NCBI RefSeq assembly: GCF_033153115.1
Contig: NW_026889774.1
Span: 26,970,001-27,034,000, forward strand
From: Saccostrea echinata
Lineage: Eukaryota
DNA: 64,000 nt
Direction: 5' to 3'
The position numbers and the translations under genes are program-made. Position 1 is the first letter of the stretch, and each line of letters opens with the position of its first letter. The notes beneath the pieces are model-generated. The model was given only the letters and a program-made list of their open reading frames with translations. It was not told the origin of the DNA and searched no databases. This document shows, piece by piece, positions 26,971-64,000 of this stretch.

Positions 26971-27606
26971 TTCCTACCCTGTACCCCAGAAAGACAAACC
27001 AATATTAATGATACTCACTAATCTACAAATGATTTTTTTTACCAATTCTGAGTACTGAATCAGATACTAAATAACTTGTTGGTAGTAGTTAAAAGCATCA
27101 AATCTAAATCTTTTAAAAAAAATTCAAAGTGATCAAAATAAAATAAAGAGAAAAAAGGAAATATTGGTAGTTGTTATAGTTGGACTTATTTCCCCTTAAG
27201 GACATCTAAGAAGGGCATAATGTACAGGTACCTATAAATAGCCTTTCTGTCGAAACTTTCTAAATTTTTGACAAATCAATTTAAATATACCAGTTGCAAA
27301 TGTTTAAATATTATCCAAATTTTTTACAAACACGGGGAGAAAATTATTCTATAAGATAATAAGATAATCTCCAAAACAAAAAATGTTATATAGATAAACA
27401 GACAGATGGACAAGTTAACTCCAGCCCTATCCATTTATCCATTCCCCTCAATTTCATATAACTTGGGAAAAACTGCTTATTTAGTTCATCTACATGTATC
27501 TGGAGAACTGTCAGAAACTTGGTGTATGTTACACTTTATCATCATTAAAATGAATCTGTATGTTGTTTTTTTTTCTCACCTGAGTCCACCTCCGCGACGT
27601 CTATAT

Positions 27607-28191
27607 TGGTCATTTACAAAATCATTTTGTTAAAAAGCACTCTGATTGTACATACAAGTACTCCAAATTTGACATTAAAAAGATGTTCGAGTTTCTAATT
27701 GACAATATCTATGTGGTTTTTGGAGACCAGGTCTTCCAACAATCTATTTGAATACCCATGGGTACCAATTGCGCCCCGGTATTAGCAGACCTATTTTTAT
27801 ATTCATATGAAGCAGAGTTTGTTCAAAATCTTTTACGTGAAAAGAAAAAAAAAACACTTGCTGTGGCCTTCAACTCGACATTTCGATATATCGACGACGT
27901 ATTATCAATTAACAATATTTACTTTCATTCATATGTCGACTCGATATATCCCATTGAGCTTATAAAAGATACCACAGATTCTGATACGTCTGTTTCGTAT
28001 TTAGATATTTTCCTAGAAAAAAACGTTAATGGTAACCTAACAACAAAGCTTTATGATAAACGTGATAACTTAAACTTTTCAATTTCCAACTTCCCTTACT
28101 TATGTAGCAATATACCCTTATCACATGCATATGGGGTTTATGTCTCTCAGTTGATTCGATACGCAAGAGCATACTCTACGTATGAACAATT
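27607..28191 (+). mobile_element. Penelope-like RT fragment inserted inside a THOC3 exon
   Basis: ORF 27758..28255 MGTNCAPVLADLFL..FRYIDDVL..YLDIFL..LYDKRD, highly similar to 11840-12420, flanked by the two halves of a THOC3 exon. Confidence 0.85.
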
Positions 28192-28359
28192 TCTCACTGG
28201 CCACTCCAACCTGGAATATATGAGGAAATCGACTTTTTATCACATCTTTCTGTGAACTTTTTCAAAAATTACATGTATAGAAAATGTCTAAGAATGAGGA
28301 ATCCTGCCTTCTTAGACTTTCTTTAAGAGATTCCTAACTTACTGTTTAATCTGATAATC

Positions 28360-29590
28360 TAGAAAGAGTCCTGACATTTCACACATACCAAGAAAGAGTC
28401 CTGACATTTCACACTTACCTAGAAAGAGTCCTGACATTTCACACTTACCTAGAAAGAGTCCTGACATTTCAGACTTACCAAGAGACAGTCCTGACATTTC
28501 AGTCTTACCTAGTCTTACCTAGAGAGAGTCCTGACATTTCAGACTTACCAAGAGACAGCCCTGATATTTCAGTCTTACCTAGTCTTACCTAGAGAGAGTC
28601 CTGACATTTCAGACTTACCAAGAGACAGTCATGATATTTCAGTCTTACCTAGAGTCCTGATATTTCACACTTACCAAGAAAGAGTCCTGACATTTCAAAC
28701 TTACCTAGAGAGAGTCCTGACATTTCAGACTTACCTAGAGAGAGTCCTGACAATTCACACATACCAAGAAAGAGTACTGACATTTCACACTTACCAAGAG
28801 ACAGTCCTAACATTTCAGTCTTACATAGAAAGAGTTCTGACATTTCAGTCTTACCTAGAGAGTCCTGATATTTCAGACTTACCAAGAAAGAGACCCGAAA
28901 TTTTAGACTTACCTAGAGAGAGTCCTGACATTTCAGACTTACCTAGAGACAGTCCTGACATTTCACACTTACCTAGAGAGAATCCTGACATTTCACACTT
29001 ACCTAGACACAATCCTGTCATTTCACACTTACCTAGAGAGAGTCCTGATATTTCACACTTACCTAGAGAGAGCCCTGACATTTCACACTTACCTAGAGAG
29101 AGTCCTGACATTTCACACTTACCTAGAGAGAGTCCTGACATTTCAGACATACCTAGAAAGAGTCCTGACATCTCCCACTTACCTAGAGAGAGTCCTGATA
29201 TTTCACACTTACCTAGAGAGAGTCCTGACATTTCAGACTTACCTAGAGAGAGTCCTTACATTTCAGACTTACCTAGAGAGAGTCCTGACATTTCAGACAT
29301 ACCTAGAAAGAGTCCTGACAATTCACACTTACCTAGAGAGAGTCCTGACATTTCACACTTACTTAGACAGCGTCCTGATATTTCACACTTACCTAGTAAG
29401 AGTCTTGACATTTCACACTTACTTAGAGACAGTCCTGACATTTCACACTTACCTAGAGAGAGTCTTGACATTTCACACTTACTTAGAAAGTGTTCGACAT
29501 TTTCAGACTTATCTAGAGAGAATTGTGACATTTCAGACTTACCTAAAAGAGTGTTGACATTTCAGTCTTACCTCGAGAAAGTCCTGACAT
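28360..29590. repeat. 30-bp minisatellite, about 41 units, derived from a THOC3 exon/donor junction
   Basis: Unit agagagagtcctgacatttcacacttacct; minus strand TGTCAGGACTCTCTCTAG|GTAAGTGTGAAA. Continuous with the exon end at 29572. Confidence 0.95.
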
Positions 29591-57656: not shown

Positions 57657-59136
57657 CTGGAGTCTATATATCTGTTAAGGGATGGGCGGTCCTAAAAAGG
57701 ACTCACTTTGATAAATGTAAATACATTAGCACACTCAAAATTAAGGGCATTCTATCTTTTCTACTGATTAGCGCAATCATAAATTAGTGCACTTGTGACT
57801 TTAAAACAAATTGTATCTATAGTTAAATCAAATATAAGGGTAAAGTTTACCCTTAAACTAATACAATTCTGAATAAATTAATGGACAAGTAGCATGAAAG
57901 ATGCTTAAATATTATTAAGACTAAAATAAGTATTTTACAGTATGTTTGTCTATCATAGAATTGCTTATGTAGGACTCTATTTGTCTGTTGTATGGTGCAA
58001 TTATATCCATGTGAGACTGTGTCTGTCTATTGAAGGACTCACTATCTCTGAATAAATATACAGCACTACACCATATCAATTTAAAACAATCCCTTGTATG
58101 ACTGAAAATGTGTTCCAAAGGATTGCTCTGTTTTACCGTGTCCTTGTTGAAAAATTGTAGACAAATCATCAGAATTGCTTGAAAGTTTAAAGTACTACAA
58201 ACGAAAAAAAGCACACAAAAAGACATGGGATGCATTAAATACTTTTATTTATTATATTCCACATAAGAAAATCTGCAAGTCTTGAAATAAAGAACTATAA
58301 AGGTTTGGCATAAAAGCTTACAATTGAGTAACATGTACACTTACAGGTACTCCTCAATAATCTTTAATTTTTTTTCCCAAAATCATGTCTTTGATAAAAC
58401 TTTCAGCAATATGTACAAGTGTTCCAGTCTCTATTAATTCTTGGTAGTTGATTCCTTCAATACCATAACTTCGGTATTGTATCAACAAACAAACAGATGC
58501 CATTTGTCTCAATCTTATTGAGAAAAAACACTGATAATTCATCTGTCCAATGTTTATCTTGGAATAACTCCAAGCCAAGTCACTCCCAAGTTCAAGTTAT
58601 AAAACTTTCAAGAGTTGTCACTGGGGAATCCAAACACTTTAACGGTACCTGCATCCCGATTTCTGTCGTATGTGTCTCTATAATCACATGCATAAGGCAG
58701 TAGAGGGCGCTTTGGGTGCCAGACAACAGTAAACGTAGGAGCTTCACAGGTAATCTCTGTTGTTTTCTCACCTGTAAATGATGGATCATTTATAGTTCAC
58801 TGACCATTGAATATTTCATTTCAGTGAAAAACAAAGGCTGCAGAGGAATTAATTTGCATTGACTTCTACGAAGTATCTTCATTCATTTTTGTAGATTCAC
58901 AAACTTTATATGTCTATTTTATACAAATATATATGTATATATGGAACAATGCCTTTCTTGTTTTTAATGAGTATGAATGGTTGAAATCATTGTAGAAAAA
59001 AATTGGAGTTGGTTATGTTTTTCCCCCTTAAAATATTGCAACCATTCATCCACTTATTAACAAAGAAAGCATTTTATTATTTAAGATATTATGCATGTAT
59101 GGTAAACAAACGACAAATTCTACTTTTTTCCCAGAT

Positions 59137-59425: not shown

Positions 59426-59861
59426 TTCTAAACTTACTACACAAAGATTAGCCATCACACAGTAGTCAATATAATGGGAGAAATAAGTCCTAAAGGACAA
59501 CCAAAACAGCATAATATAAATAGGCAAACTTTTCTGTCAAAACTGTTCTAATGACATATCAATTTGAAAATACCATCTGCAATGTTTAAATGGCATCCAC
59601 TTTTATTAATTTTACAAGACTGGTTGAAAATTATTGTTATTTATAAGATAATCTTCTGGCAAAAAGATGTCTTACCGCTAAACATACAGATTTACAAGTT
59701 AATTCCAGCTCCATCCACCATTCCCCCCCCCCCCCAATTTCATTTGCCATGAGAAATGAAATGCTTACTAAATTCATCTACATATATCTGGACAATTTTC
59801 AAAAACTTGGAATCTGTAACACTAAGTCATCATAAAAATGAATCCAGGTGTTGTGTTTTGT

Positions 59862-60150
59862 CATACCTGAGTCTGCCTCTGTGATATCTATGTTTACCTA
59901 AGTTGACATCTGTGATATCTATGTTTACCTGAGCCAACCTCTATGAAATCTATGCTAACCTGAATCGACCTCTCCAACATCTATGTTTACCTGAGTCAGC
60001 CTCTGTGATATCTATGTTTACCTGAGTCAACCTCTGTGTTATCTACCTGAGACATCTTCTGTGATATATGTGTTTACCTGAGTCAGCCTCTGTGATATCT
60101 ACCTGAGTCAACCTCGTGAAATCTACTTGAGTCTACCTCTGTGATGTCTA
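59862..60150. repeat. 24/31-bp minisatellite, about 10 units, derived from a second THOC3 exon/donor junction
   Basis: Minus-strand unit ATAGATATCACAGAGGTTGACTCAG|GTAAAC = codons IDITEVDSG plus a donor. Confidence 0.9.
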
Positions 60151-60536
60151 TGATGAAATCCTCTGAGGCTAACATTCTGCCGTCGTGACTGAAGCTTAAC
60201 GTTCTCACTGTTCACTCTAACCTGAAATATACGAGGATCCAAAAAATACTTTTTTCACACTCAAAACGGATTTTATCTTAACTATGTGCAAGCATTTTGG
60301 AAGGTAGAGATATATTCAAGAACCAGCTATTAATAAAGCGCAGCTACAAAGTCGACATAACTCGTGAACAGAATTGTGTGAAATGTGTGAAAAAAATATC
60401 ATACAATACACTAAAAAAGTTTTCAGTGAATTATGTTGAAAAACACATGTAACAAAGATGTCTAGGAATGAAGAATTCTTACTTATTAGACTTTCTATGA
60501 GAGATTTCTAATTTTATGCTTAACTTGATGAATCTA

Positions 60537-62790
60537 CTAGAAAGAGTCCTGACATTTCACACTTACCTAGAGAGAGTCCTGACATTTCAGACTTACCTAG
60601 AAAGACCTGACATTTCAGACTTACCTAAAAAGAGTCCTGACATTTCACACTTACCTAGAGAGAGTCCTGACATTTCACACTTACCTAAAGAGAGTCCTGA
60701 CATTTCACACTTACCTAAAAAGAGTCCTGACATTTTACACTTACCTAAAGAGAGTCCTGACATTTCACACTTACCTAGAGAGAGTTCTGACATTTCATAG
60801 ACTTACCAAAAGAGATTCCTGACATTTCACACTTACCTAGAGAGAGTCCTGACATTTCAGACTTACCTAGAGAGAGTTCTGACATTTCACACTTACCTAG
60901 AGAGAGTCCTGACATTTCACACTTACCTAGAGAGAGTTCTGACATTTCAGACTTACCTTGAGAGAGTCCTGACATTTCAGACTTACCTAGAGAGAGTCCT
61001 GACATTTTAGATTTACCTAGAGAGAGTCCTGACATTTCACACTTACCTACAGAGAATCCTGACATTTCAAACTTACCAAGAGAGTCCTGACATTCAAACT
61101 TACCTAGAGAGTCCTGACATTTCAGACTTACCTAGAGAGAGTCCTGACATTTCAGACTTACCCTGAGAGAATCCTGAAATTTAGACCTACCTGATGAGTA
61201 CTGTCATTTTAGACTTTCCTAGAAAGAGCCCTGTCAATTTAGACGTACCTAATGAGTCCTGTCATTTCAGACTTCCCTAGAAAGAGTCCTGACATCTCAG
61301 ACTTACCTAGAGACAGTCCTGACATTTCACACTTACCTAGAGAGAGTCTTAACATTTCAGCTTTACCTAGGGAGAGTCCTGACATTTCATACTTACTTAA
61401 AGAGAGTCCTGACATTTCAGACTTACCTAGAGAGAGTCCTGACATTTCACACTCGCCACTATGTAGAGATTTCACACTCACAAAGAGAGAGTCCTGACAT
61501 TTCAGACTTACCTAGAAAGAGTCCTAACATTTCAGACTTACCTGGAGAGAGTCTTAACATTTCAGACTTACCTAGAGAGAGTGCTGACATTTCAGACTTA
61601 CCTAGAGAGAGTGCTGACATTTCAGACTTACCTAGAGAGAGTACTGACATTACAGACTTACCTAGAAGGAGTCCTGAAATTTCAGACCTTCCTAAGGAGT
61701 CCTGTCATTTCAGACATCCCTAGAAAGAGTCCTGACAATTCAGACTTTACCTAGAGAGAGTCCTGACATTTCACACTTACCTAAAGAGAGTCCTGACATT
61801 TCACACTTACCTAGAGAATCCTGATATTTCAGATTTACCTAGAGAGAGTCCTGACATTTCAGACTTACCCTGAGAGAGTCCTGAAATTTCAGACCTACCT
61901 AATGAGTACTGTCATTTCAGACTTCCCTAGAAAGAGTTCTGACAATTCAGACCTACCTAATGAGTCTTGTCATTTCAGACTTCCCTAGAAAGAGTCCTGA
62001 AAATTTAGACCTACCTAATGAGTCCTGTCATTTCAGACTTCCCTAGAAAGAGTCCTGACATTTCACACTTACCTAGAGATAGTCCTGACATTTCACACTT
62101 ACCTAGAGAGAGTCTTAACATTTCAGTTTTACCTAGAGAGAGTCCTGACATTTCACACTTACCTAGAGAGGGTTCTGACATTTCAGACTTACCTAAAGAG
62201 AGTCCTGACATTTCACACTTACCTAGAGAGAGTTCTGACATTTCAGACTTACCTACAGAGAGTCCTGACATTTCAGACTCACCTAAAGAGAGTCCTGACA
62301 TTTCAGACTTACCTACAGAGAGTCCTGACATTTCAAACTTACCTAGAGAGAGAGAGTCCTGACATTTCACACTTACCTAAAGAGAATCCTGACATTTCAG
62401 ACCTACCTACAGAGAGTCCTGACATTTCATACTTACCTAGAGAGAGAGAGAGAGTCCTGACATTTCAGACTTACCTAGAGAGTCCTGACAATTCAGACTT
62501 ACCTAGAGAGAGTCCTGACAATTCAGACTTACCTAGAGAGAGTCCTGACAATTCAGACTTACCTAGAGAGAGTCCTGACATTTCAGACTTACCTAGAGAG
62601 AGTCCTGACATTTCAGACTTACCTAGAGAGTCCTGACATTTCAGACTTACCTAGAGAGAGTACTGACATTTCAAACTTACCTAGAGAGAGTACTGACATT
62701 TCAAACTTACCTAGAGAGAGTCCTGACATTTCAGACTTACCTAGAGACAGTCCTGACATTTCAGACTTACCTTGAGAGCGTCCTGACACA
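60537..62790. repeat. 30-bp minisatellite, about 75 units, derived from a THOC3 exon/donor junction
   Basis: Same unit as 28360..29590. The first unit is the true exon end TGTGTCAGGACGCTCTCAAG|GTAAGT at 62771. Confidence 0.95.
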
Positions 62791-64000
62791 TGCTAACTCT
62801 GCAACATCCCAGATAATGACCAAGGCCTCGGCCATTCCCGTGGCAAAGTACTTCCCCTTGGGATCAAACTTGATACAGATACAGTTAGCAGGGTGAGCAT
62901 TCAGGGTGTGCTGGAGTTTAAGGTCTGGGTATCTGCTGGCAAAAAATCATAGATTCAACACCTTATCGTTTAAATAAAGCATGCTTAGGGCAAAGTGCCA
63001 GTGATGAACAATATCCAGTACATTTTAAATTGTAGTTAACTTTGACCTATGACTTCTGACATCTATAAAAGTGATGAGGTAATTCTTGTTCCCCACTGCT
63101 ATAGTGCTGCCATCTGGTGACCAGCATATATTTATTTTCACCTTAAATATACATAATGATGTTGATAGATCTATAAAATTAACATCAAGTTTTCCTATAA
63201 GGACGTACAACACACCCACCACCAAAAAATTCCTTTCGTTTAATTTTCGCTATTTTTATATAATTTATACATGACTATATATACAGTGCGTATGCACATT
63301 TTGGACAAAATCGTTTGAGTCGTATTTGGACAGGAAGTTCCAAAAGTTACCCCTTTTGATTGTTCACGCGGAGAATAAATTTTCAATCGGCTAATTATAA
63401 AATCCTTGATTTTCCAAAAAGTCCAGCTAGTCTGGCTGTCAAATTTCATCGTCTCATTCATTTAACCATTAACCACACAAATAAAGTATTTTTGTAGAGG
63501 TACACATCGCCAAAACATTTTTTGAAGAACTTAACCTGAAAAACTATGGTTCATTTAAGCCTTAAAAATGCGTATTTTTCAATTTTAATATATTTTTACG
63601 AAGAAACCTATCGTTTAATTTTGGAAAAAATACTTTTTTCATGTAACTGGGTACAAAAGTAATCTTGATAATTTTTTGTAATTTTTTTAAACGAGCCGTT
63701 TTGAATTTATAGTGAAAAAATCACCCCCCCCCCTCCCCCTTCTCCTTAAGTCACGTTTCTCAAGCGTCTTTCAGACGTGGGACGAAAACATTGTTAGATC
63801 TACAAATACACATGAAAAACTCCAAGCTAGAAAATATCTTTTGCTTTAAAAAAAATTATTTACATTATATATCAGAGTTCTTAAAACTTTTCAGTTCATT
63901 GAAATGCAGGTGTATAGGCAATTTTTGACTAACCACTTTTTGGGACGCAGTCATTAGAGCTTGATGAAACATAGGATACCCTCGAGATATATATATATAT

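Follow-up and report, generated by a model that had tools for sequence, protein, structure and literature searches.

The window under study, a 64,000-nt stretch of a Saccostrea echinata contig, contains on its minus strand copy A, a truncated duplicate of the gene THOC3 that comprises exons 4-6 together with part of exon 3 and is missing exons 1-2 (Table 1). Copy A lacks the complete open reading frame of a functional gene, and exons 1-2 had no match in a 204-kb region that holds five THOC3 pieces amid repeated genes. Exon 5 of copy A carries two lesions, a TGA at 60214-60212 (TGG in the intact copy) and a 6-nt deletion, and its first donor, CAA followed by GTAGAT, is weakened. The intact THOC3 is copy C, located 30 kb from copy A (locus L011), which has six exons with open frames and is represented by spliced contigs. 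The THOC3 beta-propeller family PF25174 was the best family for all four copy C exons scanned and for copy A exon 4, with single THOC3 exons scoring below its whole-protein cut-off. A genome search with THOC3 exon 4 matched copies A, B and C alone.

Between window positions 83 and 55550, repeated 2-kb gene segments are interleaved with THOC3 fragments, and one of the segments encodes a B-box zinc finger. Duplication of the 2-kb segments seems to have taken the THOC3 3' ends with it. We take the repeated genes around the THOC3 pieces to be TRIM-like. The insertion within copy B exon 5 (27607-28190) is presumably a reverse-transcriptase fragment; the open frame scanned in it gave no Pfam hit.

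Table 1 THOC3 and WDR11 features, in window numbering (values above 64,000 extend the same scale beyond the window)
Feature	Position	Strand	Evidence or remark
THOC3 copy A, fragment of exon 3; upstream limit of similarity to the intact gene	63040..63143	-	
THOC3 copy A, exon 4	62771..62932	-	PF25174, E 5.6e-19
Exon-4 donor array, copy A: 30-bp unit (18 exon nt + 12 intron nt), 75.6 copies	60537..62788	-	
THOC3 copy A, exon 5 (95 nt)	60127..60221	-	Alignment to intact copy C; exon identity via Pfam PF25174 on copy C exon 5
Donor-spanning minisatellite: nine 24-31-nt units, each GTAG/GTAAAC + last 21-26 exon-5 bases	59867..60126	-	
Terminal donor (GTATGA, at 59866) and start of original intron 5	59820..59866	-	Matches intron start of copies B and C
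THOC3 copy A, exon 6 (last coding exon)	58608..58771	-	PF25174 on matching copy C exon
Exon-4 donor array, copy B: 30-bp unit, 40.6 copies	28359..29590	-	
THOC3 copy B, exon 5, split by insertion of ~580 nt; single strong donor at 27580, no exon-5 array	27580..28211	-	
WDR11 donor arrays at exons 6, 11, 20, 24 and 25; pseudo-acceptor array before exon 17	96940-134360 (L012-L014)		

A donor-spanning minisatellite at THOC3 exon 5

The exon-5 donor array of copy A occupies 59865-60151 on the minus strand and is composed of the exon end (60151-60127) and nine repeat copies behind it, which measure 24, 25, 31, 25, 31, 31, 31, 31 and 31 nt. The units thus span the exon-intron boundary, and the outermost one is the real exon end. 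All ten exon-end copies are followed directly by GT, in the form of GTAGAT (three), GTAAAC (five), GTTAGC and the terminal GTATGA, and in copy C the same holds for 9 of 10. Beyond the last donor the sequence aligns to the beginning of the intron in copies B and C, which places the array between exon 5 and its original intron. Tandem Repeats Finder (TRF) called the array at 59864-60101 (period 31, 7.9 copies, 74% matches, score 252) and, in a second call, at 59988-60150 (period 25). Over their last 19 nt the units show a between-unit mean identity of 0.74. The 31-nt unit corresponds to approximately 26 exon bases and 5 others, while the 25-nt unit may be read, judging from the letters alone, as a duplication extending to intron base +4, donor GTAG having its counterpart in exon ATAG.

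These data agree with the preliminary description of this DNA, which reported about ten units of the exon end plus GTAAAC or GTAGAT and a single donor in copy B exon 5, where GTGAGA is found. Its further statement that the units are unrelated to those of the 30-bp exon-4 array was correct in that the two units differ (the consensus sequences were compared by eye), but they are alike around the donor. Dispersed oyster satellite families, which have 128-169 bp units at many unrelated loci, do not fit the array; a genome search with it gave at least 4 matches, all in the THOC3 cluster.

Two independent arrays inherited by THOC3 duplicates

The same exon-5 array is present in copy C, with 10 exon-end copies, and in copy D, with 16, both outside the window. 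Hence the array is not peculiar to a dead copy. Copy number among the paralogs is therefore 10, 10, 16 and 1 for A, C, D and B at exon 5, and 76, 41 and 2 for A, B and C at exon 4, where copy C has in intron 4 (L011:6550-6580) a single degenerate extra unit that departs from the A/B consensus at 6 of 30 bases. An assembly or haplotype artefact can be discarded, given the 8-12% divergence of A from C over aligned bases and their unlike array content.

The exon-5 units are as alike between A and C (identity 0.76) as within each array (0.74 and 0.78), and the A/C flanks are 88-92% identical. Copy B is the most distant of the copies (0.23-0.27 from the others over 433 columns) and A-C the closest pair (0.11). 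This suggests that the exon-5 array was born once, after copy B split off, and was then inherited by the three duplicates A, C and D; the tree of THOC3 copies is unrooted, so the array may instead have been lost from copy B. At exon 4, the arrays of copies A and B share a nearly identical consensus. Because the exon-5 array is found in A, C and D but the exon-4 array in A and B, the two represent separate events, each a single old one common to duplicates, which bears out the preliminary description in its claim that two consecutive THOC3 donors gave rise to independent arrays. The largest exon-4 arrays reside in dead copies (76 and 41 units versus 2 in the intact gene), which fits tolerance of the repeats and not benefit from them.

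Splicing uses the first of the repeated donors

When contigs from four runs were mapped to copy C, exon 5 was spliced to exon 6 from the authentic first donor in three of the four, and no joint at a downstream donor of the array was listed among the contigs of the four runs. The contigs, which we take as RNA because they contain spliced GT-AG joints although no matching run listed is recorded as RNA, derive from one study and at most 2 samples, and contig assembly drops rare isoforms. In two runs a divergent contig is spliced at the place equivalent to the copy C first donor. The same pattern was seen in a second gene, WDR11, in which 4/4 runs splice the exon-11 array at its first donor and exon 17 at the acceptor adjoining the exon. 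Scored with a frequency matrix, the first donor of copy C reaches 7.5 bits and four downstream donors score higher (8.3, 8.3, 8.3 and 10.1), and the single donor of copy B scores 11.7.

Spliced THOC3 contigs that are approximately 8% divergent from copy C were also observed (L011:4853-8582). These match none of copies A, B, D and E, and may come from divergent alleles, from an additional paralog or from a second species among the samples. The variant contigs on copy C do not stem from copy A, which matched them at only 2/8, 1/8, 2/4 and 1/5 variant positions.

Use of the first donor makes it likely that the array is tolerated. Could the extra donors instead serve a function, as decoys or spares that tune THOC3 output by unproductive splicing or extra U1 loading? 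The intact copy C does retain 8 downstream GT donors, and splicing at any of them would bring translation to a stop codon 24 nt beyond the first donor. However, no such joints occur in the contigs, the units share 78% identity and are in decay, conservation of GT in the exon-4 arrays does not clearly exceed that of the other unit positions, and the dead copies harbor arrays of equal or larger size. An adaptive role is therefore highly improbable.

Long arrays are over-represented at splice sites

The preliminary description went beyond THOC3 and proposed a recurring bias toward exon/donor junctions, to be judged by comparing arrays at donors with background. Three tests, each imperfect, gave an excess beyond chance. 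The first employed WDR11, whose homologues place the organism among oysters (98% identity to Ostrea and Saccostrea proteins over 55 residues), whose 29 exons were mapped by protein and RNA joints, and which was picked after TRF had flagged arrays in it. Five of its 13 arrays in 37 kb span one of the 28 donors, where 0.32-0.41 were expected (P 5e-6 to 4e-5), corresponding to a 12-15-fold excess inside this gene. None of the 28 acceptors is spanned, with one array ending 16 nt from an acceptor. The WDR11 exon-25 array, composed of ~14 near-identical 65-nt units (97-99% matches) with GTGAGT donors, would provide a good test of the rule that the first donor is used. Beside the WDR11 5' end there is also a 64-bp acceptor-like array on the plus strand (L016, 138388-138937 on the window scale).

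The second test used 43 stretches sampled at fixed positions (1.39 Mb), which contained 217 arrays; 150 recurrent ones were set aside, 11 failed a period/complexity filter and 56 locus-unique arrays were kept. A donor of at least 9 bits occurred in 9/56 of these versus 2.5 in GC-matched random sequence (P 0.0006), and at 8 bits the numbers were 11 and 4.2. On inspection by eye, some only of the 9-bit donor arrays, among those listed, had a clear exon upstream. The recurrent family arrays (150/217) contained 25 donors versus 14 at 8 bits, but 8 versus 8.8 at 9 bits. For acceptors the 56 sampled arrays gave no excess (5/56 versus 5.5) by a matrix that performs poorly on short units.

The third test searched the genome for a word occurring three times at 25-35-nt spacing. 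With AGGTAAGT there were 86 matches at 28 places, 23 of them independent after exclusion of the two THOC3 arrays and of three duplicates; control words of the same composition gave 5 places (the reversed word) and 4 places. A further control word, GAGGATAT, had 206 matches, with at least 9 places among the matches listed, indicating that the word test is noisy. Triplets of AGGTGAGT were found at 11 places versus 1 for the control. In 21 of the 23 independent AGGTAAGT arrays the 100 nt upstream had a higher GC content than the 100 nt downstream, with one lower and one tie (P 1e-5), and frames upstream of these arrays had Pfam hits in 3/21 cases (beta-lactamase, AdoHcyase and Nudix) versus 1/30 control frames. 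A crude codon-based exon model was positive upstream of 7/23 arrays versus 7/64 lone donors and 3/72 reversed words; it is insensitive and missed two Pfam-confirmed exons.

For the acceptor pattern TTTACAGG there were 160 matches versus 45 for the reversed word, both figures counting matches and not places. Nine distinct TTTACAGG arrays were inspected, of which 3 were anchored on acceptors, 1 probably so, 3 on donors and 2 were unclear. Two of eight control loci inspected proved to be donor arrays on the other strand, so the controls are impure. Taken together, long arrays are over-represented at splice sites in this genome. The proposed bias thus stood as an excess at splice sites but not as one confined to donors, given that acceptors are also affected.

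One AGGTAAGT array, a 10-15-nt GGTAAG-rich repeat, lies antisense beside an ELP1 exon (L167, G000:C2:26368378). Junction arrays are present in conserved genes at L212, L215, L218, L220, L162 and L163, which we take to include HELQ, arginine kinase, DNA polymerase theta, CAND1 and a myotubularin-related gene.

The excess resides in expanded arrays

When 85 locus-unique arrays (period 20-80) were divided by copy number, a strong donor was present in 0/34 with fewer than 2.6 copies (1.8 expected), in 0/15 (1.0 expected) and 2/16 (1.2 expected) of the next bins, and in 8/20 of those with at least 8 copies, versus 1.6 expected (P 4e-5); the bins are small and were picked after the data were seen. 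Under 4 copies, 0/49 arrays had a strong donor, versus 2.8 expected. An excess among arrays of at least 8 copies and none under 4 points to biased expansion rather than targeted birth, and the claim in the preliminary description that arrays are born preferentially at donors was not supported by this comparison.

Nor was a fixed breakpoint at the donor seen: the intron part of the units ranges from ~2 to ~27 nt, with several loci split by eye. There was also no consistent gradient of unit homogeneity away from the exon, as polar growth would leave (15/27, P 0.56, with 8 short arrays left out). The spread of breakpoints, the lack of a consistent gradient and the split by copy number together make a cut directed to the junction less plausible, and favour a seed that, having come to straddle it, expands or lasts more than others. 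Duplication coupled to splicing or R-loops, as had been suggested for these arrays, likewise finds no support here, with breakpoints lacking a fixed offset.

Instability coupled to transcription and splicing could still act after birth, if reiterated donors attract U1 or promote RNA-DNA hybrids, with junction arrays growing longer as the ensuing lesions are repaired. It would account for a splice-site excess that is seen within one gene, WDR11, and only in high-copy arrays, and for the predominance of donors over acceptors in WDR11 and THOC3 (5/28 donors and 0/28 acceptors spanned in WDR11). However, the longest THOC3 arrays are in truncated copies without exons 1-2, and acceptor arrays exist, as do the variable breakpoints just described. 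We consider this explanation unlikely.

A simpler possibility is that nothing special happens at junctions, and that GC-richer, exon-derived units slip, persist or are detected better, with the exon shielding one side from deletion. Indeed, mean GC is 0.41 in arrays of at least 4 copies versus 0.34 in those under 2.6 copies, and the scattered breakpoints and the lack of excess among 2-3-copy duplications are as this would have it. But the excess outlasts GC matching (8/20 versus 1.6; 10/27 versus 2.4) and amounts to 12-15-fold inside WDR11, which leaves composition or retention, in our view, a slightly poorer prospect still than coupled instability.

Discussion

The architecture of the THOC3 array has been described before in other systems, and a single such array is ordinary. 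The closest parallel is provided by the lancelet "mirage" minisatellites, which are documented in Adh3, the globins BflGb6 and BflGb9, troponin C and PGBD5; they are tandem copies of exon-intron boundaries, at 5' and 3' boundaries alike, with units of 10-160 bp and normal splicing, and their origin mechanism is called unclear (PMC3087553, PMC3902484). In the oyster genome, too, both donor and acceptor boundaries are affected. Mirages are known from a handful of genes and were suggested to be possibly general in cephalochordates, in passages that contain no background test (PMC3087553, PMC3902484), whereas here the host is an oyster, the excess was measured and it was located in high-copy arrays.

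Two human systems are also instructive. The 37-bp VNTR in intron 7 of F7, which has similar counterparts in 6-16, CBS, LAMIN B2 and PDGF, resembles the THOC3 array in that its first unit covers the end of the exon, the pseudo-donors behind it are silent and the most upstream donor is used; experiments in mammalian cells showed that this donor wins even over stronger downstream sites (PMC1557585). The F7 unit, however, has 4 exon and 33 intron bases (PMC1557585), while the oyster THOC3 unit is mostly exon (~26/31). As a result, the active THOC3 donor takes its +4 to +6 bases from the repeat junction and is weaker than the terminal donor. Internal tandem repeats of human segmental duplications are similar in having ~30-bp units whose copy number varies between recent paralogs, some at exon-intron boundaries, but often remain exonic or create new introns, in contrast to the oyster copies, which are wholly intronic and lie in broken paralogs (PMC2812944). 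A literature search, which mostly covered work outside subscription journals, returned no report of junction-spanning arrays in bivalves and no test of array enrichment at splice sites.

We favor, with a probability of roughly 0.6, the reading that the array, a minisatellite across a splice donor of a broken THOC3 duplicate, arose by duplication of the junction, was tolerated owing to first-donor use and grew by unequal recombination between haplotypes. It would have started with one short tandem duplication across the exon-5/intron-5 junction, made by an ordinary microhomology slip, that was near-neutral since the upstream donor wins. Growth would have followed by unequal exchange between haplotypes that pair via the conserved exon and misalign within the exon-like repeats that follow. 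Both oysters and lancelets show high polymorphism, and haplotype exchange is preferred because it accounts for donors, acceptors and dead copies alike and is in keeping with the polymorphism of the two groups. As the general cause of the junction excess, recombination at the exon edge may be the explanation, with a little under an even chance among the causes considered.

Junction-spanning repeats have so far been treated as gene-by-gene oddities of unclear origin, and it is for this reason that a measured excess matters. What is new here is measured support for a wider splice-site bias of arrays. Scaled to 923 Mb, the excess would amount, by rough extrapolation, to ~1,000-10,000 donor arrays. 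We tentatively propose that exon-intron boundaries are hotspots of minisatellite expansion in this oyster, with thousands of introns bearing repeats of their own splice junction, which would make up approximately one-third of long locus-unique arrays, and that each duplication of a donor can replace the intronic half of a functional site with bases of exon origin. First-donor use, established in mammalian cells, also has many natural test cases in this genome. If the preference of long arrays for exon edges is indeed ~5-15-fold, splice sites would be places of raised repeat instability, which would bear on intron length, donor turnover, intron gain and exon annotation. If true, the proposal would imply a genome-wide mutational process at splice sites, perhaps common to highly polymorphic marine invertebrates, and the question of how mirages arise would become testable.
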